This document shows positions 8,309 to 52,725 of a DNA stretch of 64,000 nucleotides, piece by piece (the first letter of the stretch is position 1; the number at the start of each line of letters is the position of its first letter). The notes beneath the pieces were generated by a model that did not search any database, was not told where the DNA came from, and saw only the letters and a program-made list of their open reading frames with translations. The DNA is from an uncultured Candidatus Saccharibacteria bacterium (lineage in GTDB: Bacteria; Patescibacteriota; Saccharimonadia; Saccharimonadales; 2-12-FULL-41-12), in assembly GCA_964444225.1 (NCBI GenBank), contig CAYUFM010000001.1, positions 26,216 to 90,215 on the forward strand. The letters run 5' to 3'. Made by a program: the position numbers and the translations under genes.

Positions 8309-10189
8309 TTATAAGCTTGCAGATTTTGGCAAATGCGTACCTTCTAAAAGTTTGATCACTTCTTCAGCTTCAACTGTCTCTTTTTCTAGTAGTTTATCCT
8401 TTAGTTTTTCTAGGTAGCTTAGGTTGGCTTTTATCACTTCTCGCGCTCTATTGGCAGCTTCCGTAACTAGAGCCTCAATTTCTTGGTCAATCACTTTCGC
8501 AGTGTCTTCAGAATATTGTTTTTCATGAGTCATACGTTCGAACATCATGCCAGACTCAACGTGAAACACCTGGTCGCGCAGCTTATCACCCATCCCCTGG
8601 CTGACTACCATGTCACGAGCAAGTTCCGCAGCTTTTTGCAGGTCAGAACCAGCGCCTGTTGTAACTTTATCTTTTCCGTAAATTACTTCCTCAGCAATAC
8701 GGCCACCCAACATCCGGCCAAGCACATCCTTATACTCTAAAATACTATGGTAGCTTTTATCCTCTGGCGGGATAAACCAAGTGACACCGCCAGTCCCGCC
8801 ACGTGGAATAATTGTAACTTTATGTACAAGGTCACTTTCTGGCAGTATATGTCCAACTAGTGCGTGGCCCGCTTCGTGGTAAGCGGTCAGTTCTTTCTCT
8901 TTATCGCTCATTATCGAGCTTTTGCGCTCTGGGCCAATCGCCACTTTTTCAAAGGCCGCCGTAACAATATCATTAGTGATGGTTTTTTGATTCTTGCGAG
9001 CTGCTAAAATAGCTGACTCGTTAGCAATGTTGGAAAGATCAGCTCCAGAACTACCGGCTGTCTTAGCAGCAAGAGCATCCAGGTCAACAGATTTCTCAAG
9101 TGGTTTCTTGGCAAAATGTACTTTCAAGATTGCCTTACGGTCTTCGCGGTCAGGCAAGCCAATGCTAACGCGACGGTCAAACCTACCGGGTCGTAGTAAA
9201 GCCGGATCTAGCACGTCAGCTCGGTTAGTTGCAGCTAGTACGATCACGTTCTCGCCTTGCTCGAAGCCGTCCATTTCAACCAAAATCTGGTTAAGAGTTT
9301 GCTCACGTTCATCGTGTCCACCACCCATACCACTACCACGCCTTCGTCCTACGGCGTCAATCTCGTCAATAAAGATTATGCACGGAGCATTCTTCTTGGC
9401 TTTTGCAAAAAGGTCACGCACCCGCGATGCACCAACACCAACAAACATTTCAACGAATTCTGATCCAGATATGCTAAAGAAAGGTGCGTTAGCCTCACCA
9501 GCCGTTGCACGGGCCAACATTGTTTTACCTGTTCCTGGAGGGCCAATAAGAAGCACACCTTTTGGAATGCGCGCACCAACATCCTCAAACTTTTTAGGAA
9601 ATTTCAAGAATTCAACAACTTCTTCAAGATCTTGTTTAGCTTCGTTACTTCCAGCAATATCTTTGAACGAAACTTTGTCTTTTTGATTACCATAAAGTCG
9701 CGCCCGACTCTTTCCGAAGCTCATAGCTTGATTCCCCTGCCCCTGCGCACTCTTCATCATATACAGCAAGACAGCAACGATAATAATTACCGGCAACACA
9801 GATACAAAAAGAATATTGATTAGGTTGCCATTATTACTTTCTTTAGCGTTAAGCACCTCTACTTTTGCGTCTTTATTAAGACCCTGTTCGTAGATACTAG
9901 CACTGGCTTCCTTACGAGTTTTTTCACTCGGCTTATCCTCGCCTTGCTTTGTAACTTTTATCTCCGCACCTTGAATCTCTAATTTTTTAATCTCACCACT
10001 GTTGGCACGTTTTACTACATCTGATAGTGCTACTGTCTTTAGGTTCTCGTTATTGCCAGTAGACGCAAAGATTACAAATCCGAAAAGCAGTAAAATTACT
10101 ACAAATCCAACATTCTTAATGCCTTTTTTACCAGGCTTACCCTTTTTAGCATCGGGTTTTTTATTCAATTTAAACTGTTTTTTATCCAT
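8309..10189 (-). CDS. ftsH: ATP-dependent zinc metalloprotease FtsH
   Basis: N-terminal TM, AAA Walker [12 protein letters not shown] region, zinc motif [10 protein letters not shown]. Confidence 0.95.
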
Positions 10190-10244
10190 AAAATACTACT
10201 ATTAACTCCCGAAATTATTAGGTCACTAAACCAATACTAAACCA

Positions 10245-11138
10245 TTATACAGACGATCTAGTCTGTATGCCAATCTGTTTAGTGGTAACCTCAAAATATC
10301 TATTTTTATCAATATCGGTTTTTGCTCCTGGCTTTAGAGTTTTGAGTTCATTTACTAATTTTTCGACTCGTTTTTTATCGTGCTTTGCGCCAAGTTCTTT
10401 GAGCCAAAAAACCATTAACTCGCAAGCAATTTTATGTGGTAAAGATACAAAAAAACTCCGGTCGAAGCATTGTTTTTGTTTATCATATCCATGACTAAAA
10501 ATACCTTCAATAAGCTGGTCCATCTCTAAGTTTCTAGCCGAGTTTGCAGACAACAAATCTTCTAGTTTTCCTTTTTGGCTGGGCGAAACTTCTTTTAAAA
10601 ATTTTCTGATTTTGTTACGAGTATATTTGGTTGATAAATTTGTCGGATCTTCACACCATACCAATTTTTTCTGTTTAGCGTATTTTAAAACTTCCGCCTT
10701 TCTATAGTCTAGTAGCGGACGAATGATTTTATCGGTAGTTCTGAGCGAAGTTAATCCAGATCTGGCTGTACCTCGTAACAAATTAAAAACCGCCGTTTCT
10801 AGTAGATCGTCTTTGTGATGAGCTGTAACTATCGCGTCAGCGCTATACTTTTTTACTGCTGATTCAAGAAATTTATAGCGCCGCGTCCGAGCCACTTCTT
10901 CGCTGGCGTCTGGACCTAAATTCTCTCTTTTATATTCAAATTGTAGCCCGTAATTTCTGGCTAGATCCTGTACGAACTTTCTGTCATTTACAGAATCTTC
11001 CCGAATACCATGGTCAAAGTGTGCCACTATGAATTCGCAATTACTCTGTTTATATAGCAAATCCAGCAGAACTACTGAGTCGACTCCGCCACTAACCGCC
11101 ACAACATATTTTCCTGGCTCAATATAAAACTTCATCAT
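10245..11138 (-). CDS. tilS: tRNA(Ile)-lysidine synthetase TilS
   Basis: PP-loop VAVSGGVDSVVLL (SGGxDS). Length 297 aa. Confidence 0.85.
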   Translation of the reverse strand: MMKFYIEPGKYVVAVSGGVDSVVLLDLLYKQSNCEFIVAHFDHGIREDSVNDRKFVQDLARNYGLQFEYKRENLGPDASEEVARTRRYKFLESAVKKYSADAIVTAHHKDDLLETAVFNLLRGTARSGLTSLRTTDKIIRPLLDYRKAEVLKYAKQKKLVWCEDPTNLSTKYTRNKIRKFLKEVSPSQKGKLEDLLSANSARNLEMDQLIEGIFSHGYDKQKQCFDRSFFVSLPHKIACELMVFWLKELGAKHDKKRVEKLVNELKTLKPGAKTDIDKNRYFEVTTKQIGIQTRSSV

Positions 11139-11152
11139 ATAATCTTAACAGT

Positions 11153-11710
11153 ATGAGTTTGGTTTTTTGCACCTCTAACGATATTAAGTTTGAATCTGCT
11201 CAATTTGCTTGTCAAGAATTTGGAGTAGAGCTCGAAAGAGCTTCTCATGAAGTTGATGAAGTTCAATCAGAAGATCCGCAATATATATTAAGCCAAAAGA
11301 TAATCGCAATGTACAAAAAAATCCAAAAACCTCTGGTTGTATCTGACGATTCCTGGAGTATTCCTGCACTAAACGGTTTCCCCGGCCCTTACATGAAATC
11401 TGTTAACCACTGGTTTTCTGGGCAAGATTGGGTGAATCTAATGTTGGGTCATAAAGATAAGCGAATTTTCTTGATTGCCAGATTGGCGTATATAGACAGT
11501 GACGAGGTGGTGACAACTTTTGAGGAGACGTATGAACGTAAATTTCTTGAAAAAGCATCGTCTCGACCAGGCGTACCTATTCTTCAGGCAACGAGTTTCC
11601 CTGATTCAGACATCCCTAATAATGAGAGGCAAGCAGATGACCCTAGAGGATACCATTCTCAGCGCAAAGTGTGGGCAGACTTCCTCAATTGGTATAAAAC
11701 TAACCAATGA
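11153..11710 (+). CDS. non-canonical purine NTP pyrophosphatase (Ham1/RdgB-like)
   Basis: LVFCTSNDIKF...VVSDDSWSIPALNGFPGPYMK matches the Ham1 family pattern (xxTxNxxK ... DDSGL.V.AL.G.PG.YS). Confidence 0.6.
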   Translation: MSLVFCTSNDIKFESAQFACQEFGVELERASHEVDEVQSEDPQYILSQKIIAMYKKIQKPLVVSDDSWSIPALNGFPGPYMKSVNHWFSGQDWVNLMLGHKDKRIFLIARLAYIDSDEVVTTFEETYERKFLEKASSRPGVPILQATSFPDSDIPNNERQADDPRGYHSQRKVWADFLNWYKTNQ

Positions 11711-12246
11711 AAAATTTATATTATATACGTCACGGTGAAACAGACTCCAATAAGTTTAGGATGTGGTCAGAGTTTGACACTCCACTCAATGCAACTGGTT
11801 ACGAGCAAGCAAAGTTGGCGGCAAAACAGCTAAAAGATTCTGGCATAAAATTTGACCTGATCGTCACTTCTACTCAGCCTCGAGCCTACGAAATGGCTGA
11901 TATTATTGCTGATACTGTCAATTACCCTAAAGAGTCTGTGCTGAGAGATCCAGATGCACACGAAAGACGATGTGGAGTACTGGAAGGTACAAAAAACCTA
12001 GAAGCCTCGGAAGAATACCGCAAAGACGAGAGAGCCATAGATAAATACGAAGGCGTGGAAAAATTAACAGACATGGAAGATCGGGTAAATAAATTTTATG
12101 AAAAACTAAAAAACTTACCCCAAGACACAATCTTGGTTGTAGGACACAGTGCATTCGGTCGTGCTTTGCGAAGAAAAATAAACAACGAGCCATACTCAGA
12201 CAATGAAGGAAGCCTTCAAAACGCCAAACTATACAAATTCATCTAG
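11707..12246 (+). CDS. histidine phosphatase family protein (phosphoglycerate-mutase-like)
   Basis: RHGET motif at the N-terminus (YYIRHGETDSN). Confidence 0.65.
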   Translation: MKNLYYIRHGETDSNKFRMWSEFDTPLNATGYEQAKLAAKQLKDSGIKFDLIVTSTQPRAYEMADIIADTVNYPKESVLRDPDAHERRCGVLEGTKNLEASEEYRKDERAIDKYEGVEKLTDMEDRVNKFYEKLKNLPQDTILVVGHSAFGRALRRKINNEPYSDNEGSLQNAKLYKFI

Positions 12247-12285
12247 CTAACAGATGTAAAATGTGATATATTTAGCACCTAGTAT

Positions 12286-12315
12286 GGCAGCGTAGCTCAG
12301 TTGGTTAGAGCGCAG
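12286..12315 (+). repeat. 30-nt orphan copy of the tRNA-Met 5' end (acceptor stem and D-arm)
   Basis: GGCAGCGTAGCTCAGTTGGTTAGAGCGCAG is identical to nt 1-30 of the intact tRNA 51 nt downstream, then diverges. No anticodon arm can be folded. Confidence 0.6.
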
Positions 12316-12336
12316 AAGATTAACATTTTGGTTGGG

Positions 12337-12413
12337 GGCAGCGTAGCTCAGTTGGTTAGAGCGCAGGACTCATAAGCCTGAGGTCACTGGTTCAAACCCA
12401 GTCGCTGCTACCA
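12337..12413 (+). tRNA. tRNA-Met (CAU), elongator type
   Basis: Cloverleaf GGCAGCG-TA-GCTC-AGTTGGTTA-GAGC-G-CAGGA-CTCATAA-GCCTG-AGGTC-ACTGG-TTCAAAC-CCAGT-CGCTGCT-A-CCA. Close to E. coli elongator tRNA-Met in the D-arm and T-arm. Confidence 0.85.
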
Positions 12414-12587
12414 ACCTAACTGTTAATCAGGACCCATAATCGAGGATGCGCACAGATGCTCGGCATCGAGCACACCGCAAGATTATATGCGCGAAGGCGC
12501 TATAAAGCCTGTGATTGAAGATTCGCTCGAGAAGTTTCTCTCGCTTAGACAAGCAAAGAAAACATAAATATCTAACAGATATTTATG

Positions 12588-12619
12588 GGTCACTGGTTCA
12601 AACCCAGTCGCTGCTACCA
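12588..12619 (+). repeat. 32-nt orphan copy of the tRNA-Met 3' end (variable loop, T-arm, acceptor 3' strand, CCA)
   Basis: GGTCACTGGTTCAAACCCAGTCGCTGCTACCA is identical to the 3' end of the intact tRNA 175 nt upstream. It is preceded by a perfect 10-bp hairpin (ATAAATATCT-AAC-AGATATTTAT). Confidence 0.6.
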
Positions 12620-12639
12620 AAAACGCATTAAATTAAAAT

Positions 12640-19938: not shown

Positions 19939-20769
19939 AAAAAGAATCTTATTGCCCCATGGGTCATCAACTTCAATTTTTTGGTTTTTGTCTTGATATT
20001 TATACTCAAACTTTTGTAGCCTGTCAGATAAATTTGCAAGATCGCTACTCTCAGGCAAATGTATATCGAATTCTGCAAGTCCTAGAGCTGGGGTTCTTTT
20101 GCTGGCACCTTGGCTCATCCAGGTATTTGCTCCTATATGATGGTGATAGCCCCCAACAGACAGAAACAGTGCACTAGGCATATCAAACGTTATATCAAAC
20201 CCAAGTATGTCTACATAGAATTTACGTGCAGCAGGTATGTCGCCGACCCGCAAATGAACATGCCCTAGGTGTTTCTCGTCAACAACGCCATTTTTTAGGT
20301 ACTGAGTTATATAGTTCTCAGGGTCGATGTATAAAGTATCCATTGCGATGCGCCCATTGTGCCACTGCCAGTCTTTGCGTGGTCGGTCAAAGTATAGCTC
20401 CAGTCCGTTACCCTCCGGGTCATGAAAATAAAAAGCTTCACTAACCAAATGATCCCCTGTGCCTTCATACAGATGAGGTGCTCGCACAAGTATGTTTTTA
20501 ACTGCTTTTGCTAACTGCGACCGTGACCCATAAACAACCGCGTTGTGAAATAATCCTGCACTAGGCATATGTGCAAATTTTAGGTTAGGCTTCTTTGTTA
20601 ATTTAATTATGGGATTTTTATCAAAACCAAGGATTGTATGGTTGGTAGTTTTATCTAAAATTTCAAACCCCGCGGTATCAGCATAAAAATCTGTCATCTT
20701 AGTTAAATCATTAACAAACAGTTCGGAGGGCGCTAATTTTACATCCTTTGCAAGAATTGATTCTTTCAT
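19927..20769 (-). CDS. VOC family protein (glyoxalase / extradiol-dioxygenase-like, two-domain)
   Basis: HLGHVHLRVGDIPAARKFYVDILGFD and an N-terminal FYADTAGFEIL repeat of the VOC fold. The start is probably the internal Met at 20769 (MKESIL) or further downstream (MTDFYAD). Confidence 0.7.
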   Translation of the reverse strand: MKESILAKDVKLAPSELFVNDLTKMTDFYADTAGFEILDKTTNHTILGFDKNPIIKLTKKPNLKFAHMPSAGLFHNAVVYGSRSQLAKAVKNILVRAPHLYEGTGDHLVSEAFYFHDPEGNGLELYFDRPRKDWQWHNGRIAMDTLYIDPENYITQYLKNGVVDEKHLGHVHLRVGDIPAARKFYVDILGFDITFDMPSALFLSVGGYHHHIGANTWMSQGASKRTPALGLAEFDIHLPESSDLANLSDRLQKFEYKYQDKNQKIEVDDPWGNKILFLAP

Positions 20770-20770
20770 G

Positions 20771-20793
20771 GTCACTATACATTGTATAGTGAC
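20771..20793. promoter_or_regulatory. 23-bp perfect palindrome GTCACTATACA-T-TGTATAGTGAC (putative HxlR-type operator, copy 1)
   Basis: 11-1-11 inverted repeat abutting the VOC gene start. The same sequence recurs at 29310-29332. Confidence 0.5.
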
Positions 20794-20944
20794 TGTACAA
20801 AAAATCAAGTTTATATATAAAATCTTGCAACGAAAAGGCAGGCGAAACGTTTATGATAATTATCACAGTTTTTTGTTGATATGCTTCACAGCTATTTCTC
20901 ATGTTAATGGCTATAGTTAGAGTTGCACGAAGGGAGGTGCAGAT

Positions 20945-29277: not shown

Positions 29278-29309
29278 TTTTATCTCCTTATGATTTAGTT
29301 ATTTTTGAT

Positions 29310-29332
29310 GTCACTATACAATGTATAGTGAC
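29310..29332. promoter_or_regulatory. 23-bp perfect palindrome GTCACTATACA-A-TGTATAGTGAC (putative HxlR-type operator, copy 2)
   Basis: Lies in the divergent intergenic region between the FMN reductase gene and the HxlR-family regulator gene, about 33 nt upstream of the reductase start. Confidence 0.55.
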
Positions 29333-29400
29333 TCTGAATATTAGTATACTAGCAGTCAGTATATAAAGTAAAGTGACTTTGTGATAAAATTGAAATAATT

Positions 29401-34539: not shown

Positions 34540-35451
34540 CTACGAAACTGCAGTATGAACACCAAGATAGTTGCTCCGATAACTAACATCCATCATATTT
34601 ATACCCACTTTACCATTTTTATGGGCCCAGAGACCAATAGCAGCATTCCTAAGCTCATCATTGTATGTTCCGTCTAACCAAGACCAGGTTCGTTGGTCGA
34701 TTGGAGGTTGGTAGTCTTGCAGTAGGCTAGCTTGGAGACTTAGGTACTCTGGGATGGTGGTGTACTTCTCTCCTGCCCGTATGTATTGATCATGACTAAC
34801 GCCTAGGTTCTGAGGTGTATCCGTAGCTGAGATAAGCCTTAGAGTCCATAGATTTGTTGGGTGGCTAGCGTTTGAGATTGGGGCTTCAATGGTTGGGGTA
34901 GCGTCAGGTATCTGCATGCCTAGCTCTATCCAGTTGTTAGTTATTTCTGGTTTTATATATAGACCACCATCCCTAATCCTCTTGTCTTCTTCTTTGCCAC
35001 TGGCTGGAATTGGATTAACAATTGGGTCGTCTTCAAGCTTCTTGTAGAGTTCTTTCCAGTGATCTACGGTTAAACCATAGGGTGCTAGGACTAGTCTTGG
35101 CTCTAGACCTTCTGTCTTCATGTGTTGGTATTCATGACCTAGGTATACAAAGTCTATACCTGAGTTAACTATTGTATCAACATCAGGGGGAGTTATACCT
35201 ATCCGAGCGAATAATCGTTCTGTACTAGACAGGAAGTGCTCAAAGCTTTGTCTAGTTTCTGAGCCTGGGATCATGTCTAGAGATACAGACCCTGGAACTG
35301 GAGCTGGAGCTAGGGCATTGGCATCACTGCCCAGACTTTCGGCCTGGGCTAGTTTATCGGCAGATGATAATCCTAAGTTACCTAGTGTAGCTTTAACCAT
35401 ACCTGGAGTTAGCAGATCTGGGTTGGTTTTGCGGAGGGCTTCGAGGGACAT
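34540..35451 (-). CDS. hypothetical protein, paralog A (303 aa), distal gene of the vWA operon
   Basis: Start is 2 nt after the stop of the vWA gene. The first 164 codons are identical to the gene at 38718..39626. C-terminal 35 aa are unique. Confidence 0.6.
   Translation of the reverse strand: MSLEALRKTNPDLLTPGMVKATLGNLGLSSADKLAQAESLGSDANALAPAPVPGSVSLDMIPGSETRQSFEHFLSSTERLFARIGITPPDVDTIVNSGIDFVYLGHEYQHMKTEGLEPRLVLAPYGLTVDHWKELYKKLEDDPIVNPIPASGKEEDKRIRDGGLYIKPEITNNWIELGMQIPDATPTIEAPISNASHPTNLWTLRLISATDTPQNLGVSHDQYIRAGEKYTTIPEYLSLQASLLQDYQPPIDQRTWSWLDGTYNDELRNAAIGLWAHKNGKVGINMMDVSYRSNYLGVHTAVS
34960..35451 (-). repeat. inverted repeat arm A (492 bp, 1 mismatch to arm B)
   Basis: Reverse complement equals 38718..39209 except one synonymous C/T. 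Checked block by block across the whole arm. Confidence 0.9.
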
Positions 35452-35453
35452 GC

Positions 35454-37223
35454 CTATATGTACCTTCCAGTATAATTAGCTAAAACTTCTAACAGTGCCA
35501 CAGGCAGAACAGAGGGGTCAGACATTGTCCTCATATTTGGGGTAACTGACCTATAACCACCAATATTAAATTGGCCAACATAAGTATTTTTTGGGAATGA
35601 ATTAACAGTTGCTTGCGCCTGATAGTGATCATGAAAATCGCCGTCAGTAATTATCAAAATTATATTGTCTCGTCCAGAGTCGGCGGGACCGCCGCAACTT
35701 AAAAGGGCATCATTTACAAATGTTGCACTACTGGTAGGGTTCGATAAATTTGTAAATGTAGCCCCTTTCTCAGCAGGCGTAGGTTGATAACTAACAGCAG
35801 AAAGTTCTAAGGCATCAGAGCCAAAGGCTACAATATGCGTCCTAACATCTGGATTAGACACGCCAGTGTCTTTGGCGACTTGGGCTCGGGCCAGCTGGAG
35901 GCCTTCTAGCAGGCACAACGCTGTCGTTGCAGCTGACTGTGCTTTATTGCCGCTTCCCATCGACCCACTAACATCGACTAATAGATGAATATCTAGTCCA
36001 CTAAATGTCAGTTTTTCAGTTTTGTCAGACCTGGTAATCGATCGCCAAACTGCTTGTTGATCACCAGTTAATTTTTGCGTCACCAAACCCGTAACCGCAG
36101 TACTGTGTAAGATTGGTCCGTCATTAGTAGGTTTACGGCCATAAGTTAGTCGATGGTTTAAGAATGCTGGCTTTGTTAAAGTTTTTAACACTTCAGCAAT
36201 ACTTTTTATTATATGAGCGTGTTGCAAACTTGCTCTAGTGTAGGCCTCTGCATCGCCAGGTAGTAACCCCATTTCTTTGGCTATTTTTTCCGCCAGTTCG
36301 TTGAATTGTTCGCGCGACAAGCCATCTTCGGTTTTTTTGGTGTCTACCGTGTCAACCGGTTCTGTATCTTCAGTTTTTTCCGATGTATCTTTTTCGTCTT
36401 CTTTGCCATCAAAGATCTTCAATATTCTTTTACCTAATCCCTCTAATCTACCGGCTTCTGTTTTTGGCCCACCAGGTAGCTTATCTACTTGCCTAACTTC
36501 AATTTGTTCTTCGGTATACTCTTCAATTATTTCTTCAAGGCGCTCACCTTGCCCGGATTCTTTATCTTGTTCGACCAATTTATCGTACGCTGGTTTTATA
36601 TAACGATTAGCAATATTTCTACGATTGATTAGATCGGTTCTAGGATCAGTTAGAGTTTCTATAATATCAAATTTATCACCCGTTTTTGTAGTGTAGTTTT
36701 TGAGGTTGTCGATTATACCGTTAACTTCGGGGTGTAGCTCCAAGCTTTCACCTGTTACCTCACCGATTCTTATGCCCCACATTAACTGAGCAGATAAAGG
36801 CATCTCCGCAATTTTTTTAGCTTCTGGCATAACATCACCATATAGATCCATGACATCCTGCTTGATCCCAGGTAACCTGCATAATCGACTATCTATAACT
36901 ACATCATCAGCTAAGCAATAAAAAAAATGATCGGTTGGTGATCTTTTGGCCAACACATCTTCAGGACTTGCAATCATATCTATCGCATGACCAACTTCGT
37001 GTAATGACACCACAAGTGCTCTTTCCTCTGATACATCGCCTGTTGTTTTATCGGCAATTTGTTGGGGATCAATATTAATTCTTATTCCAGTCGGCTCGGC
37101 AATACAATATGAACCATTGTCACTAGATTCGGTTGTTGCTGTCATGCCACGCATCCCATAAACAGCCGATGCTAAAGTAGCTAGATCAGCTATTTCTTGA
37201 TGGGGCTGAGTATGTTCACTCAT
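35454..37223 (-). CDS. vWA-domain protein with N-terminal HExxH zincin-like metallopeptidase motif
   Basis: HEVGHAIDM in the N-terminal third. MIDAS DVSGSMGSGNK (DxSxS) in the C-terminal vWA. The likely start is MSEHTQ at 37223, not the ORF start at 37295. Confidence 0.75.
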   Translation of the reverse strand: MSEHTQPHQEIADLATLASAVYGMRGMTATTESSDNGSYCIAEPTGIRINIDPQQIADKTTGDVSEERALVVSLHEVGHAIDMIASPEDVLAKRSPTDHFFYCLADDVVIDSRLCRLPGIKQDVMDLYGDVMPEAKKIAEMPLSAQLMWGIRIGEVTGESLELHPEVNGIIDNLKNYTTKTGDKFDIIETLTDPRTDLINRRNIANRYIKPAYDKLVEQDKESGQGERLEEIIEEYTEEQIEVRQVDKLPGGPKTEAGRLEGLGKRILKIFDGKEDEKDTSEKTEDTEPVDTVDTKKTEDGLSREQFNELAEKIAKEMGLLPGDAEAYTRASLQHAHIIKSIAEVLKTLTKPAFLNHRLTYGRKPTNDGPILHSTAVTGLVTQKLTGDQQAVWRSITRSDKTEKLTFSGLDIHLLVDVSGSMGSGNKAQSAATTALCLLEGLQLARAQVAKDTGVSNPDVRTHIVAFGSDALELSAVSYQPTPAEKGATFTNLSNPTSSATFVNDALLSCGGPADSGRDNIILIITDGDFHDHYQAQATVNSFPKNTYVGQFNIGGYRSVTPNMRTMSDPSVLPVALLEVLANYTGRYI

Positions 37224-37227
37224 AATA

Positions 37228-37256
37228 TTGACAATATTAACATAAAATGCTACAAT
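37228..37256 (+). promoter_or_regulatory. sigma70 consensus promoter TTGACA-N17-TACAAT driving the AAA gene. The -35 is embedded in the palindrome AATATTGACAATATT.
   Basis: Perfect -35 and -10 with 17-nt spacing. The ATG at 37265 lies about 8 nt past the -10, so the mRNA could be leaderless. The 15-bp palindrome spans 37224-37238. Confidence 0.45.
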
Positions 37257-37264
37257 TGTAAAGT

Positions 37265-38716
37265 ATGAATAATCATAAAACCCCAGAACGGGCAACTTTT
37301 ATGTGTCCGGGCACAGATGAATGTCGAGCTTTATGTCAAGCCTTAGGCAGACAAGGTCTAGATGCCACTGATCTAGGAGTTGCCGGTAGTTGTGGTGTGC
37401 CGGAATTATTAGTATCCGACGGGCAAACAACACATGTCAATGGCTTAGAAGGTCAGCTTGCTGACAAACTTGCTTCTGGGCTAGCAAATCATCTAGCTCG
37501 TTATCATGAAGATCAGACAGAACGCGAAGCAATAGCCACAGTAAAGGTTGACTATAGGGCCGTTTTTGAAGCTAGAAACAATATGTTCAGCGCAATGTTG
37601 AGTGCCACCAAGGCAGGTCAGAGGTTTACGGCTGAAGAATTAGAATTTTATGAAAATCAAACCAAACAAGCAGAAGCACAATTAGCAAAAACTGCGGAAG
37701 GCCGAGATTCATTAGAAGTAGTATTAGGCCAGGCGTCATTTGATGCAGAAGTATTGGCAGAAACTGGCTTAGTTTTTGACCCACAAATGGTTAATAATAT
37801 TCAAAGAATTGTCACTAATACCGTAAACGGAAAACCAACTCTAGTAACCGGCAATAAAGGCATAGCCAAAACAGCCGCCTTTAAGTATGTCAGCCGACTA
37901 ATCGCCCCAGATAAAGCACCCTTGATAATTAGTGGGCACGGTGACATGATGACTCACGAGTTGATTGGCAGGACTGACCAAGACCCCGATAGTGATGAGC
38001 TAAAGTTAAAATTCAAAGATGGCAAGATAATTAAGGCCATGCGCGAAGGTAGGCCGGTTCTTTTAGACGAAGTAAACGTGGCCGATCAATCAGTTATGAT
38101 GCGTCTAAACGATATTATGCTTATGCGACCAGGCGATAAAATTGTCTTGCAAGAAAATGGAGATGAAGAAATCGAAATTCAGCCCGGTTTCTGTATATAT
38201 ATGACAGCAAATATCGGGCAAAGATACTCGGCACGTCAAGAGCTGGATACAGCTTTTAAAGACAGGGCAGATATAATTAAGTGTGATTACCCCGACACGT
38301 CCAGACAACCTTTAGGAGATAATATGCCAATAACTCTCAGACATGCATTTGCCATGGCTACAGATACAGACGGACGTCTTAGCCCGCACATTAATCCGGA
38401 TGAGCTGGTCAAGCTAGCTCGTTATGCACATGTATCCCAGCAGTTATACTCTCAACCATCCAAGAATGTAGCCGATGCACTCACCGGAATAAACTTTGCA
38501 GATAGAAGTGCCTTAACTTCCTATGTTGATGATGAGCCTGTTATGTCTGATTGTATAACTCCACGGTCAATGTTTGAGGCTATAGCCAATGCTAAACATG
38601 GCAACCGGCCAGGTGTAAGTTTAGTAAGCGAAATTGAACGCTTAGTTAGTGCACTCGACAATGAAGGCAGTTATAACGCAGATGTGCTGAATAAGGTGCT
38701 GATCAAGGTGCTTTAA
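37265..38716 (+). CDS. MoxR/CbbQ/NorQ-type AAA+ ATPase with a Cys-rich N-terminal extension
   Basis: Walker A GNKGIAKT, Walker B VLLDEVN, then SVMMRLNDIML, FCIYMTANIG, LDTAFKDRADIIKCDYP (AAA_5 pattern). About 190-aa N-terminal region with CPGTDEC...C...C. The start may be Met-13 (37301). Confidence 0.75.
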   Translation: MNNHKTPERATFMCPGTDECRALCQALGRQGLDATDLGVAGSCGVPELLVSDGQTTHVNGLEGQLADKLASGLANHLARYHEDQTEREAIATVKVDYRAVFEARNNMFSAMLSATKAGQRFTAEELEFYENQTKQAEAQLAKTAEGRDSLEVVLGQASFDAEVLAETGLVFDPQMVNNIQRIVTNTVNGKPTLVTGNKGIAKTAAFKYVSRLIAPDKAPLIISGHGDMMTHELIGRTDQDPDSDELKLKFKDGKIIKAMREGRPVLLDEVNVADQSVMMRLNDIMLMRPGDKIVLQENGDEEIEIQPGFCIYMTANIGQRYSARQELDTAFKDRADIIKCDYPDTSRQPLGDNMPITLRHAFAMATDTDGRLSPHINPDELVKLARYAHVSQQLYSQPSKNVADALTGINFADRSALTSYVDDEPVMSDCITPRSMFEAIANAKHGNRPGVSLVSEIERLVSALDNEGSYNADVLNKVLIKVL

Positions 38717-38717
38717 C

Positions 38718-39209
38718 ATGTCCCTCGAAGCCCTCCGCAAAACTAACCCAGATCTGCTAACTCCAGGTATGGTTAAAGCTACACTAGGTAACTTAGGATT
38801 ATCATCTGCCGATAAACTAGCCCAGGCCGAAAGTCTGGGCAGTGATGCCAATGCCCTAGCTCCAGCTCCAGTTCCAGGGTCTGTATCTCTAGACATGATC
38901 CCAGGCTCAGAAACTAGACAAAGCTTTGAGCACTTCCTGTCTAGTACAGAACGATTATTCGCTCGGATAGGTATAACTCCCCCTGATGTTGATACAATAG
39001 TTAACTCAGGTATAGACTTTGTATACCTAGGTCATGAATACCAACACATGAAGACAGAAGGTCTAGAGCCAAGACTAGTCCTAGCACCCTATGGTTTAAC
39101 CGTAGATCACTGGAAAGAACTCTACAAGAAGCTTGAAGACGACCCAATTGTTAATCCAATTCCAGCCAGTGGCAAAGAAGAAGACAAGAGGATTAGGGAT
39201 GGTGGTCTA
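38718..39209 (+). repeat. inverted repeat arm B (492 bp)
   Basis: See arm A. A further 300 bp or so continues at roughly 90% identity before the sequences diverge completely. Confidence 0.9.
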
Positions 39210-39626
39210 CACATTGACAATAGAGTGGCTATCAACTGGACAGAGCTAGCCATGCAGATACCTAAAGCCACCCTAGCCATTAAAAGCCCAATCTCAAACG
39301 CTAGCCACCCAACAAATCTATGGACTCTAAGGCTTATCCCAGCTACGGATAGGCCTCAGATCCTAGGCACTAGTCATAATCAATACGCACCAGTAATAGT
39401 ACAACACACCACCATCCCAGAGTACCTAAGTCTCCAAGCTAGCCTACTGCAAGACTGCCAAGCACTAGTAGACCCACATACCTGGTCCTGGCTAGACGGA
39501 ACATACAATGGAGGTACGACTGCCCCAGGTGGTGGCTGGAGCTCTGCTGGAGGGTGGGTGAATGTAGGCTGGTGTAAGACCGATGATAAGCACGATGAGC
39601 TTGGTACTCGTCCTCCGAGATGGTGA
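38718..39626 (+). CDS. hypothetical protein, paralog B (302 aa), distal gene of the AAA operon
   Basis: ATG lies 1 nt after the AAA gene stop. N-terminal 164 aa identical to paralog A. Gly/Trp-rich unique C-terminus. Confidence 0.6.
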   Translation: MSLEALRKTNPDLLTPGMVKATLGNLGLSSADKLAQAESLGSDANALAPAPVPGSVSLDMIPGSETRQSFEHFLSSTERLFARIGITPPDVDTIVNSGIDFVYLGHEYQHMKTEGLEPRLVLAPYGLTVDHWKELYKKLEDDPIVNPIPASGKEEDKRIRDGGLHIDNRVAINWTELAMQIPKATLAIKSPISNASHPTNLWTLRLIPATDRPQILGTSHNQYAPVIVQHTTIPEYLSLQASLLQDCQALVDPHTWSWLDGTYNGGTTAPGGGWSSAGGWVNVGWCKTDDKHDELGTRPPRW

Positions 39627-45357: not shown

Positions 45358-47085
45358 ATGAGGAAGGCAAGCAAGTTTGGGTTGATAATTATTCTGGTTT
45401 TACTAAGCTTTTTTTACCTTAGAAGTCCCAGTACACCGCCCACTCCCCCAACTACTTATAAGCCTCTGGCCCTACAAAGCATCACAACCTCAAAAATCGA
45501 GACAAATAAAGACCAGGCTTTATTAAAATCTTCAGAAAAAATTACAGAAACCAATCAATTAAGTTCAATTTCAGGCAAACAACCAAAAACCGAAATTGTT
45601 ACTAATGGCACAACTTACCCAAATCGCATATATAGCCCTATGCTAGCGCCAAACGATCCTTCCTACAACCAGTGGTGGGTTGCCCCTAATGATATGACCA
45701 GCGTTTGGGATGTACCTGCCGGGACTTACCAAACTAAAATTGCAGTTATCGACACAGGTTTTGCGCTAAATCATCAGGAGTTTGCTGGTCGCTGGGCTAC
45801 TAACAGTGGCGAGACAGGATTGGCTGTTGGTGAAGAACCAAGTGATCTTAACTGTACTGACCAAGGTCTGCCTCTGGACAGATCTTGCAATAATATTGAT
45901 GATAACTTTGACCAAATTCTAGATAATGAAACTGGCCCAACAACAGAACAAAATCCTTCTGATCGCAACTGTACTGACCAAGGTCTGCCTCTGGACAGAT
46001 CTTGCAATAATATTGATGACGATGGCAATAACTACAAGGATGACGTTACTGGTTGGGATTTTGCTAATTTCGACTCTAGTGTACAAGCCGGGCAAATAAA
46101 CCCCACAGGTAGCGGCACAACACACGGCACAATGGTTGCAGGGATTTTGGGCGCTACAGGCAATAATGGCGTAGGTATTGCAGGCGTTAATTGGCATACA
46201 AAAATCTTGCCAATCCAAGCGCTAGACGACGACAGTTATGGTGACAGTTTTACTGTTGGACAAGCAGTTTACTACGCAGTAGACCAAGGCGCAGATATTA
46301 TTAGCATTAGCCTGGGAACAAGCACAAATGACCCATACATGCGAGCTGCCATACTCTACGCCCTAGACCACGGAACGATCGTCGTTGCATCTACGGGCAA
46401 TAGTGGCTGTGACTGCATATCGTACCCGGCAAACTACCCAGAAGTTGTAGCTGTAGGTGCAGTAAATTCTACTGGTAGCCCTGCGAGTTTTAGCAATTTT
46501 GGGTCACAACTAGATGTCTTGGCCCCTGGTCAGACTATGGCTTCGCCTACCTATACATCAGGCAACCAGGTAAGTGCTTACGCGAGCAATATTGCAGGCA
46601 CTTCATTTTCTACGCCCTTCTTTAGCGGAGTCTTAGGACTAGCTAAAATGTCACAACCAACCGCATCTTGGGAAGAATTAATTGGCGCAATGATGGAGAA
46701 TTCTGACCGTCAGACACTAACATTAACTTCACCACGAACAAACACTCTAGGTTTTGGAGTGACTAGAGTCAATACAATGCTAGACCGCTTGCGTCTTACA
46801 AATTCCGCAATTCAAAGAACCCAATTTAGCGGAACAATACTTGGTTCTAAACTGACCTATCAGTGTGAGGGCGTCACTATACCGGCCACCAGATTATATG
46901 AATTAACAAAATATGGACTTTATAACTACACGACAAACCCACGCGAACTTTCAAAAGCCATACAAAATGGCTGGACTTCAAAAGAAATTGCCTATACCTG
47001 CATTGGACTAGCAAGCGATAATGTTTCTGTTATTAGAAATCTAAGTCTAACTTCAGAGCTTCATAACTTGACCCAAAAGAACTAA
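45358..47085 (+). CDS. subtilisin-like serine protease (peptidase S8)
   Basis: Catalytic triad motifs AVIDTGF (Asp), HGTMVAGILGA (His), GTSFSTPFFSGVLGLA (Ser). Signal/anchor at the N-terminus. Confidence 0.8.
   Translation: MRKASKFGLIIILVLLSFFYLRSPSTPPTPPTTYKPLALQSITTSKIETNKDQALLKSSEKITETNQLSSISGKQPKTEIVTNGTTYPNRIYSPMLAPNDPSYNQWWVAPNDMTSVWDVPAGTYQTKIAVIDTGFALNHQEFAGRWATNSGETGLAVGEEPSDLNCTDQGLPLDRSCNNIDDNFDQILDNETGPTTEQNPSDRNCTDQGLPLDRSCNNIDDDGNNYKDDVTGWDFANFDSSVQAGQINPTGSGTTHGTMVAGILGATGNNGVGIAGVNWHTKILPIQALDDDSYGDSFTVGQAVYYAVDQGADIISISLGTSTNDPYMRAAILYALDHGTIVVASTGNSGCDCISYPANYPEVVAVGAVNSTGSPASFSNFGSQLDVLAPGQTMASPTYTSGNQVSAYASNIAGTSFSTPFFSGVLGLAKMSQPTASWEELIGAMMENSDRQTLTLTSPRTNTLGFGVTRVNTMLDRLRLTNSAIQRTQFSGTILGSKLTYQCEGVTIPATRLYELTKYGLYNYTTNPRELSKAIQNGWTSKEIAYTCIGLASDNVSVIRNLSLTSELHNLTQKN
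45850..46019 (+). repeat. tandem direct repeat inside the S8 protease gene (two exact 53-bp copies, 117-bp period)
   Basis: AACTGTACTGACCAAGGTCTGCCTCTGGACAGATCTTGCAATAATATTGATGA occurs at 45850 and 45967. It encodes NCTDQGLPLDRSCNNIDD twice, between the Asp and His catalytic motifs. Confidence 0.85.
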
Positions 47086-51389: not shown

Positions 51390-52511
51390 TTAACAGCGTT
51401 TTTTAGAGCAACCGCAACTACCGGAAATAGTGGTTTTTGTTACCTTGGTCTTTACATTCTTTGTTCCGCACTCCGGACATGATTTTGAAATAAATTCACA
51501 ATCTTCACTGTCTGTTTTTTTGTCAAAATCACCATAGCCAAGTGCTCTCATCTCTTCTTCGCTGCTTGTTATAGTTACCCCGCAACCACTGTAGGTTCTG
51601 CCCCGTTCTTTGGCTAATCTGCCATAAAATTCCATTTCGGCAGCCGGTGAGATAAATACTAGTTTATTTTCTATAGCAACGATTGCTTGTTGTGGGTATT
51701 TAGATTTTTCTTCAAACCTTGCCTCAATCGTAGCCGCCAAATTTCTTTTGGCACCAGCATCTTTGGATGTTTCTAAGTATTCATTGATTAAGTCAGTTTG
51801 CTTACACGCAAAATCATAGGTATTACGATAGTCTGTTGGATTACGTCCAGCGTACCACTCACCACCAAATTTTTGCATTAATTTATTATCATAAACAGTT
51901 GTTAAAGTATCGGTAAGTTTTGCGTGAAATTTTTCATCAATATCCACACTAATTCTCTGACCTAATAACTCACCGCGCATAGGTGAAACTCCAAAGAATT
52001 CATAAATCGACTCTAGGCCATCTCGGTCGCTTCGATCAAGACTTTGCGAGATCATACTGATGGTACCGTTCAAAGACCGAGTTATTACCCTGAGCATAGT
52101 TTGTTGACGGGTGGTGTTGTACCCGCCAATATCGCTTTTGCCCTGCTTTAGTTCTTCAGGAAAATCAGAGACAACCACCATAGTGTTAGGAGCCTCTGGA
52201 TCTTTGACCATTTCTATCATTTCGAGATACTCGTCCATCTCAATACGTCGCCTACGCAATTCAAAATTAAGTTCTGGTTGATCTAGGACTGTTTGCTCGG
52301 CACTTCTGACTGCTTTTCTAAAAATATCGCCAAGAGGTCGACCGTCCCTTCGAGAAACCAGGTCTTCACCATCATAAATATACTCAAATGGTGTGCGCAT
52401 ATTACCGTCCAAGACTTCTGCAAGCCATGTTGTAGTATCATCAAACTCTGCAGTTTCGTGATTTATGCCTCTTGGATAAAATTCTTTTTTTTCAGCGAGT
52501 GCTAGGCTCAT
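51390..52511 (-). CDS. hypothetical protein with C-terminal Cys4-plus zinc-ribbon-like tail
   Basis: C-terminus CPECGTKNVKTKVTKTTISGSCGCSKKRC. No family recognised. Confidence 0.45.
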   Translation of the reverse strand: MSLALAEKKEFYPRGINHETAEFDDTTTWLAEVLDGNMRTPFEYIYDGEDLVSRRDGRPLGDIFRKAVRSAEQTVLDQPELNFELRRRRIEMDEYLEMIEMVKDPEAPNTMVVVSDFPEELKQGKSDIGGYNTTRQQTMLRVITRSLNGTISMISQSLDRSDRDGLESIYEFFGVSPMRGELLGQRISVDIDEKFHAKLTDTLTTVYDNKLMQKFGGEWYAGRNPTDYRNTYDFACKQTDLINEYLETSKDAGAKRNLAATIEARFEEKSKYPQQAIVAIENKLVFISPAAEMEFYGRLAKERGRTYSGCGVTITSSEEEMRALGYGDFDKKTDSEDCEFISKSCPECGTKNVKTKVTKTTISGSCGCSKKRC

Positions 52512-52603
52512 AAAAATACCCTTCTCATCTCGAGCAAGGGCATATGCTTCTTTGCTCGGAAGACTTTATAGCTGTATCGGACTTTAACCGTTGCGGCACA
52601 GTT

Positions 52604-52618
52604 CCTGAGTTACTCAGG
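52604..52618. promoter_or_regulatory. 15-bp palindrome CCTGAGT-T-ACTCAGG upstream of the 373-aa gene
   Basis: Perfect 7-1-7 inverted repeat, about 95 nt upstream of the start at 52511. There is a second hairpin (CGAGCAA...TTGCTCG) nearby. Confidence 0.3.
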
Positions 52619-52725
52619 ATTCCAGCGTTTTTATTTATTAATGTAGATCAAGTTTAGCACACCACCCATAGTGTGTAAGCCGTAAAAAATACACCACATA
52701 TCGCCTATGAGGCAAAATGTAGTGC

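Follow-up and report, generated by a model that had tools for sequence, protein, structure and literature searches.

A divergent MoxR–vWA cassette with twin variable proteins in Saccharibacteria: a candidate variable-sensor system

Introduction

What is the role of two head-to-head operons in which an ATPase gene and a vWA gene are each followed by a copy of one further gene, the two copies being nearly identical at their 5′ ends and divergent at their 3′ ends? The question is raised by four genes at 34540–39626 of a window of 64,000 nucleotides (the whole stretch of DNA that was analysed) from an uncultured Candidatus Saccharibacteria bacterium (GenBank assembly GCA_964444225.1, contig CAYUFM010000001.1). 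In the open reading frame (ORF) list, the minus-strand operon consists of a vWA protein gene (35454–37223, 589 aa), whose product combines a zincin-like N-terminal domain, a disordered acidic linker and a C-terminal vWA/MIDAS domain, and of par1 (34540–35451, 303 aa), which follows after 2 nt. The plus-strand operon consists of a gene for a MoxR-type AAA+ ATPase of the AAA_5, CbbQ/NorQ/midasin-like kind (37265–38716, 483 aa) and, after 1 nt, of par2 (38718–39626, 302 aa). The products of par1 and par2 are referred to below as variable proteins (VPs). A divergent promoter region of 41 nt (37224–37264) separates the two start codons. The four ORFs and their spacings lie where a first-pass annotation, made by a model from the letters of the DNA, had placed them. 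The vWA ORF remains open as far as a TTG codon at 37295 (35454–37295); the ATG at 37223 is the likely start, and the 589-aa protein that begins there is the form present in databases.

The cassette is most likely a variant of published systems in which a diversified sensor is combined with an ATPase switch. More specifically, it is read here, by analogy and with moderate confidence, as a system that joins a MoxR–vWA pair to variable sensors, has a zincin-like domain as its output and lacks a diversity-generating retroelement (DGR) of its own. The evidence comes from the two VPs, from DGRs that adjoin relatives of the cassette, and from the conservation of its core.

Twin variable proteins

The outer genes form an inverted repeat in which 498 nt are 99% identical (left arm in the 5′ part of par1, 34955–35452; right arm in the 5′ part of par2, 38717–39214) and a further 282 nt are 85% identical, extending the arms to 34659 and 39510, respectively. 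Over nt 1–492 of the genes, 491 of 492 positions are the same and the single difference is synonymous, which gives the 164 identical residues by which these genes had been recognised as paralogs. This 5′ identity is far beyond chance. From nt 493 onwards the alignment becomes a mosaic of identical blocks and divergent patches, and the last ~120 nt are the most divergent. The 120 mismatches beyond nt 492 are distributed over codon positions 1, 2 and 3 as 45, 43 and 32, and the ratio of nonsynonymous to synonymous divergence (dN/dS) is 1.0 at nt 493–792 and about 1.95 at nt 793–909. Upstream of nt 493, dS is 0.008. This low value, together with the sharp boundary, points to recent gene conversion of the 5′ part, which would account for its identity.

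The C-terminal tails had been described in the first-pass annotation as unrelated, and this description has to be revised. Over their full length both proteins align with a single family, including its conserved C-terminal G-W...LG-R-P-W motif, and the tails are homologous while being the most variable part of the protein. The broader claim, that each core gene is accompanied by a paralogous third gene with a variable C-terminal part, is borne out.

A HMMER scan of 1.84 billion cluster representatives placed 349 clusters in the VP family, of which a word-indexed search had recovered 7 members only. Nearly all of the 150 clusters listed are standalone proteins of ~300 aa (lengths 123–352, median 303). 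The par2 product matches the family profile with an E-value of 3.5e-85, and the C-terminal consensus of the family reads AP-G-W..G-G-V...LGVRLPVW. Models in Pfam, NCBIfam, PHROG and PADLOC gave no match to the VPs. A signal peptide or transmembrane-like segment is lacking in 141 of 147 family members. In an AlphaFold model based on 7 sequences (pLDDT 79, pTM 0.78), residues 1–53 are predicted to be disordered and are followed by a core that probably resembles the C-type-lectin/formylglycine-generating enzyme (FGE) fold, the ligand-binding scaffold of DGR targets. A Foldseek search of the model against the PDB, of the kind that the first-pass annotation had proposed, returned noise only.

Larger sets of VP genes also occur. 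Two contigs from sample ERZ1407739, L001 (1–4412) and L003 (278–4700), carry head-to-tail tandem arrays of at least five ~300-aa VP paralogs. The arrays belong to a GC-richer organism and represent a repertoire expansion unlike the twin inverted copies of the window.

Diversity-generating retroelements in related loci

In sister genomes, DGRs hypermutate the final ~35 codons of VP-family genes. A DGR template repeat (TR) adjoins the module in three lineages and matches the 3′ ends of the outer genes, and 79 of the 81 mismatches fall at TR adenines. In locus L016 an intergenic TR of 110 nt (10098–10207) matches both outer-gene 3′ ends, all mismatches lying at TR adenines (15/15 and 15/15). The TR of L028 is arranged in the same way (16/16 and 16/16). 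In the third lineage (L017, L029 and L030) the TR lies 320 nt downstream of the outer gene, with 17 of 19 mismatches at TR adenines.

The state of the reverse transcriptase differs among these lineages. L028 encodes an intact enzyme of 319 aa (RVT_1, 3.6e-14). In L016 the reverse transcriptase lies downstream of the TR (RVT_1, 3.6e-13), and its gene is cut just past the YGDD box by an IS3-like insertion (region 10544–12591). By eye, this IS3-type element comprises a short orfA and an rve-like orfB, and an Avd-like ORF lies between the TR and the reverse transcriptase, on the other strand. No reverse transcriptase was found within 6 kb in L017, L029 and L030. Inspection by eye of L017 (1554–3776) revealed serine-recombinase-like and ParB-like ORFs just past the orphan TR. 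They occupy the expected place of a reverse transcriptase, whose gene may have been displaced by a mobile element.

The DGR target of this third lineage is a clear member of the VP family of the window (profile E-value 1.6e-87). The par2 product shares 34% identity over 249 aa with the L017 homolog (E-value 2e-40), in an alignment that reaches the C-terminus. The segment of par2 equivalent to the DGR variable repeat (VR) lies at 39522–39623 on the plus strand (APGGGW...LGTRPPRW). Its counterpart in par1, the last 34 codons at 34543–34644 on the minus strand (AAIGLW...LGVHTAVS), also aligns with the VR of DGR-targeted homologs, although the motif at its end has degenerated (R to H, W to S).

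For the 64 kb of the window itself, an active DGR was rejected. A crude YxDD screen of window ORFs of at least 200 aa returned the AAA ATPase ORF as its sole match, phmmer detected no window ORF resembling the L016 reverse transcriptase, the 3′ ends of par1 and par2 have no further copy within the 64 kb, and the mismatch spectrum of the paralogs is not that of adenine mutagenesis. The gaps downstream of the outer genes measure 128 and 66 nt, and there is therefore no room for an adjacent TR or reverse transcriptase. A remote DGR may be located elsewhere in the genome. In the window copy, variation is carried by the two paralogs instead.

Diversification without an adjacent retroelement

The 5′ half of the VP genes is constant, and the 3′ half evolves fast. 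In nine strains of a human-oral clade (L005 type), the vWA genes differ by 3–7%, the 5′ halves of the VP genes by 0.4–6% and their 3′ halves by 15–24%. Expressed as nucleotide diversity (pi), the VP 3′ half reaches 0.15–0.24 in these oral-type strains, compared with 0.03–0.07 for the vWA gene. A comparison of L025 with L026 illustrates the same pattern within a single gene. The AAA gene, the vWA gene and one VP gene of these loci are 100% identical; in the other VP gene (10851–11717), 608 nt are identical and the last ~260 nt contain about 60 differences. The divergent stretch partly matches the allele of L024, and this looks like 3′ cassette exchange by recombination.

Near-identical inverted 5′ ends recur in L028 (158 nt, 100%), L016 (157 nt, 99%) and L007 (123 nt, 99%), and in L013 the inverted paralogs align over the whole gene at 88%. 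The L005 type has no DNA-level repeat between its two paralogs.

Three Logan contigs (L036–L038), from independent short-read assemblies, contain an identical vWA gene. The read sets SRR12762304, SRR12762291 and ERR8482638 hold such an identical gene. L036 covers the whole AAA–vWA core and reaches about 58 nt into the inverted repeat at either end. L037 and L038 break off about 58 nt into the repeat downstream of the vWA gene, and their other end lies inside the AAA gene. The 3.3-kb core may accordingly occur in both orientations, or the assembly graph may simply be broken by the repeat.

The ATPase and vWA core

The assignment of the ATPase to the MoxR-type AAA+ proteins holds up: the protein matches Pfam AAA_5 (1.6e-14) and a CobS-like PHROG (1e-19), and its closest solved structures are the AAA modules of midasin (4e-45) and NorQ (4e-6). 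The Cys-rich N-terminal extension noted earlier contains a cluster of four cysteines (37304–37393, plus strand) that are invariant among nine homologs. Walker A (GNKGIAKT, 37850–37873, plus strand) and Walker B (DE, 38066–38071, plus strand) are likewise invariant among the nine. The Walker A motif takes the form G[DN]KGIAKT in 9/9 homologs, with alanine in place of the glycine that precedes the lysine of the canonical GxxxxGK[ST] motif. As this unusual form is conserved, it is presumably functional.

In the vWA protein, the HExxH and MIDAS motifs reported in the first-pass annotation were both located, as HEVGH (36987–37001) and DVSGS (35961–35975) on the minus strand. The vWA domain (35457–36002, minus strand) has an intact MIDAS, whose motif is invariant among homologs. 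The protein ends with this domain, at residue 589; its additional domain lies at the N-terminus, and there is no C-terminal effector.

The N-terminal domain (residues 1–238; 36510–37223, minus strand) is probably zincin-like, to judge from its motifs and predicted structure. HExGH is invariant at the HEVGH position among 12 homologs. Asp107, Ile110 and Asp111 of the downstream motif DDxVI[DN] (DDVVID in the window, 36891–36908, minus strand) are also invariant. An AlphaFold model of the vWA protein (pLDDT 70) places a small β-sheet before the HExxH helix. The fold search with this protein was dominated by its vWA domain. Peptidase profiles match the N-terminal domain around the motif and below threshold only: ACE reaches 0.036, and Peptidase_M91, matched by 4 of 11 members, reaches 0.0027 at best, which is under the curated cut-off. 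Sequence profiles thus gave no significant peptidase-family match. The metallopeptidase proposed at first pass is therefore sustained as to the conserved HExxH motif and predicted topology, and not as to family membership; the zincin-like label is plausible and not established.

No transmembrane-like segment and no signal peptide was detected in any of the four proteins, and a cytoplasmic location is accordingly predicted as probable from the lack of such segments.

Distribution and conservation

The arrangement in which paralogs flank a divergent AAA/vWA pair is found in the window and in about 15 further loci, with vWA-protein homologs at 35–40% identity. Every locus that is complete on both sides keeps the four-gene layout (L005/6, L011–13, L016, L017, L022–26, L028, L029, L031 and L032). 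Relatives of the vWA protein were found in 11 of 185,579 species-representative genomes, and this is a lower bound because the scan used two peptide patterns. All of these but L016 (10/11) carry Saccharibacteria-lineage titles, namely Candidatus Saccharibacteria, Saccharimonas, Saccharimonadales or Saccharimonadia metagenome-assembled genomes. A metagenome scan with the vWA profile yielded 14 loci. The pair of MoxR-type AAA+ and vWA-MIDAS proteins is thus conserved and, among the named genomes found, confined to Saccharibacteria.

Flanking genes vary from locus to locus, and outside the cassette synteny with the window is zero. The gene-neighbourhood comparison suggested at first pass therefore returned a recurrent layout in about 15 loci with differing flanks and no conserved housekeeping partner nearby. 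The conserved cassette comprises three protein families only, within about 5 kb. A distant clade (L018–L021; 27–29% identity) has a different order, with an AAA gene, a ~290-aa gene and a vWA gene that are co-directional; similarity between the middle gene and the VP family is undetectable. In L031 (8821–10911) and L034 (3390–5283) two ORFs take the place of a single vWA gene, which a frameshift, a pseudogene or a sequencing error could explain.

A phage origin was considered and rejected. Viral contigs scanned with the VP profile gave zero matches, and the PHROG matches are to generic ATPase families only.

Genomic setting

The cassette lies among ordinary chromosomal genes. Its nearest neighbours encode Dus, an MFS transporter, a Mur ligase, MazG and MscS, and LepA, MurJ, FtsH, ComEC and DinB are encoded farther out in the window. 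The first-pass annotation had remarked on the absence of the usual partners, and indeed none of the substrate genes of CbbQ-, NorQ-, CobS- or GvpN-type ATPases (RuBisCO, NO reductase, cobalamin or gas-vesicle genes) is found near the cassette. The ORF list and a profile search revealed no transposase or integrase in the block. Its composition was also correctly described as GC-richer: the block has 43.8% GC compared with 40.0% in the rest, a value unmatched in any other 5.1-kb segment, and its tetranucleotide distance of 0.249, compared with 0.136 ± 0.015 for other segments, makes it the strongest outlier in the window.

Two promoters are predicted in the 41-nt divergent region, both by consensus match only. 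The plus-strand site (37228–37256; TTGACA-17-TACAAT with an upstream TG) is the best promoter-like site of the region, and the minus-strand site (37262–37234; TTTACA-17-TAATAT) is weaker. From these predicted positions, both mRNAs would be leaderless or nearly so.

Several features elsewhere in the window were recorded in passing. An AdoCbl-II (cobalamin) riboswitch (52565–52641, minus strand) scores above the Rfam gathering threshold and sits upstream of a 373-aa ORF (51390–52511) that has no Pfam match. One of the three tRNA-Met genes of the window (12337–12413) has an exact copy of part of its sequence on either side (30 nt, 12286–12315; 33 nt, 12588–12620), and these copies resemble integration-site scars. 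A subtilase (Peptidase_S8) gene at 45358–47085 contains an internal 60-nt direct repeat (97%, spacing 117 nt; 45843–46019). Finally, a 40-nt inverted pair (83%; 20765–20804 and 29299–29338), with the palindrome GTCACTATACA(A/T)TGTATAGTGAC in each arm, occupies two intergenic sites and could be a common operator.

Comparison with described systems

Kaur, Burroughs, Iyer and Aravind (2020; PMC7159879) described vWA–MoxR ternary conflict systems with DGR-diversified C-type-lectin (FGS) domains. The window cassette resembles these systems in its adjacent MoxR-type AAA+ and vWA/MIDAS genes, in a C-type-lectin-type domain (here a probable one) whose C-terminal region is DGR-diversified (here in relatives), in a peptidase as possible output, and in that paralogous systems differ in their variable parts. 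The link to these systems, which the first-pass annotation had drawn, therefore applies in that relatives of the outer genes are DGR targets, and fails for other components. Judged by gene content and fold, the third component of Kaur et al. (VMAP, iSTAND, FtsH or β-propeller) is absent here. Their lectin domain is fused C-terminally to vWA, whereas here it forms a separate ~300-aa gene that is present twice and inverted. Likewise, their variable effector domains follow the vWA domain, whereas here the vWA domain is itself C-terminal and follows the zincin-like domain. Their hosts are multicellular cyanobacteria and actinobacteria; here the host lineage is an ultrasmall epibiont one, and the window copy lacks a DGR.

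Doré et al. (2023; bioRxiv 10.1101/2023.09.22.558884) reported clade 5A DGR loci in which a MoxR-like gene lies directly upstream of C-type-lectin (CLec) targets. These loci share with the cassette the order in which an AAA gene precedes a CLec target (here a probable one) whose N-terminal extension is uncharacterised, the presence of two targets per locus, and a peptidase that is often nearby; the proposed logic is that the variable CLec protein is the sensor and MoxR the relay. However, clade 5A loci are proteobacterial, their targets have no vWA partner or have vWA fused, and they include neither a divergent twin-operon layout nor a zincin–vWA protein, both of which are present here. According to Paul et al. 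(2017), as cited by Doré et al. (2023), a CLec–AAA ATPase fusion is the commonest DGR target architecture in the Candidate Phyla Radiation (CPR) and DPANN. As represented there, these targets agree with the cassette in their CPR host and in a CLec variable domain (probable in the cassette) that is functionally tied to an AAA ATPase, and they differ in being fused, whereas the cassette has separate genes and an obligatory third partner, the vWA–zincin protein.

Midasin/Rea1 and NorQ–NorD exemplify an AAA_5 ring that works with a MIDAS/vWA domain, but they act on unrelated substrates (ribosome assembly factors and NO reductase, respectively) and have no variable partners and no zincin-like domain. 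The classical DGR targets Mtd, the tail-fibre tip of Bordetella phage BPP-1, and TvpA, a surface lipoprotein of Treponema denticola, have no detectable sequence similarity to the VPs, which are without export signals and go together with an ATPase/vWA machine.

The combination of a MoxR/vWA pair with a DGR-diversified lectin domain has been published before. The new elements are a family of VPs that stand alone, a pair of inverted targets on either side of a divergent core, a zincin-like domain at the N-terminus of the vWA protein, the lack of VMAP and iSTAND, a saccharibacterial host, and the coexistence of DGR-plus, DGR-decayed and DGR-less forms. A literature search, with Paul et al. (2017) standing outside the comparison, found no paper on this cassette.

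Proposed function and alternatives

In the favoured reading as a DGR-less variable-sensor system, the constant N-terminal half of each VP would dock on the vWA/AAA machine, and the variable C-terminal face would bind a ligand, possibly an invader or one of the host's molecules. Binding would be converted into an ATP-driven conformational change by the MIDAS site of the vWA protein and the ATPase hexamer, and the zincin-like domain would provide a proteolytic output. This scheme of sensing, transduction and output is modelled on the mechanics of midasin and NorQ–NorD and on the proposals of Kaur et al. (2020) and Doré et al. (2023). A role in defence or conflict is suggested by the same analogy. 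A known defence system was considered separately and rejected on the empty PADLOC search.

Several observations weigh against this reading. The 64-kb window contains no reverse transcriptase or TR, and the par1/par2 mismatches are not adenine-specific (44 of 120 on A, compared with an A content of 32%), so that the role of DGRs is shown for homologs only. The DGR-equipped targets of L016 and L028 form a divergent VP subfamily that aligns with the window family over 74 C-terminal columns only (hhalign 63%, E-value 6.8e-5). In par1 the terminal R-P-W is lost, and a dN/dS of at least 1 could also arise if a decaying copy were under relaxed constraint. The zincin is assigned at the level of the motif only, the proposed contact between the VPs and vWA or AAA is, like the direction of the signal, drawn purely by analogy, and PADLOC-DB 2.0 gave zero matches for all four proteins at E-values up to 0.1.

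A more far-reaching alternative, which is possible but tentative, is that the cassette is a minimal intracellular constant-plus-variable receptor, which runs without a retroelement and provides recombination-driven anticipatory recognition with a proteolytic output. Gene conversion of the inverted 5′ halves would then keep both sensors compatible with one ATPase/vWA-protease machine, and the 3′ ligand-binding cassettes would be diversified by paralogy, by inter-strain recombination and, where present, by a DGR. Crossing-over within the 0.5-kb inverted repeat could in addition flip the 3.3-kb core and swap the sensor that lies behind the stronger promoter.

About the same modest weight is given to the proposal that the VPs are exported, diversified adhesins for the binding of the epibiont to its host, with AAA/vWA acting as an assembly or export chaperone and the zincin maturing the VPs. 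The missing signal peptides and transmembrane-like segments, both in the four proteins and in 141/147 family members, speak against export, as does the requirement of AAA+ activity for cytoplasmic ATP. Moreover, secretion genes are not conserved beside the module across loci.

It is rather unlikely that the VPs are cargo, that is, polymorphic effector or toxin precursors whose constant leader is read by vWA/AAA and whose variable C-terminal module is freed by the zincin. Such a leader would fit the ~53 N-terminal residues predicted to be disordered and the identity of the N-terminal part between paralogs in several lineages, and the tandem arrays of at least five paralogs in L001 and L003 would fit a cargo repertoire. 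However, the variable part has the predicted fold of a ligand-binding scaffold and no recognisable toxin domain, and the DGR targets described so far bind and are not toxins.

A housekeeping maturation chaperone of the CobS/CobT, NorQ/NorD or CbbQ/CbbO type, acting in metal insertion or enzyme remodelling with the 300-aa proteins as substrate or adaptor, is improbable. Against it stand the lack of a substrate operon nearby and neighbours that vary locus by locus, the occurrence of the module in only 11 species-representative genomes, and the outlying composition of the block. DGR hypermutation and inter-strain recombination of the partner genes would also be unexpected for a housekeeping substrate.

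An assembly-made inverted duplication, or a composite transposon with 0.8-kb inverted repeats, is very improbable: although the inverted repeats are of great length and almost without mismatch, short-read assemblies break precisely there and the composition is foreign, the layout recurs in about 15 independent assemblies, including the L005 type without a DNA-level repeat, the par1 and par2 copies differ in their 3′ 420 nt, and the block has neither a transposase or integrase nor a viral contig match.

Implications

On genome analysis alone, bacterial antigen sensors have been proposed in which DGR-diversified lectin-fold proteins are coupled to ATPases of the MoxR/vWA or STAND kind. Among the versions encountered here the saccharibacterial cassette is the smallest; it has no accessory adaptor genes, and its variable component belongs to a standalone protein family of 349 clusters that was previously unannotated. 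The cassette occurs in human-oral Saccharibacteria. Co-cultures and genetic tools now exist for oral Saccharibacteria. With DGR-plus, DGR-decayed and DGR-less forms available in nature, the sensor, switch and effector model becomes directly testable. The same series allows one to ask what becomes of a hypervariable receptor after its mutator is lost, and the twin VP genes offer a case of concerted evolution in which a putative constant docking half is maintained beside a fast-evolving, putative binding half.

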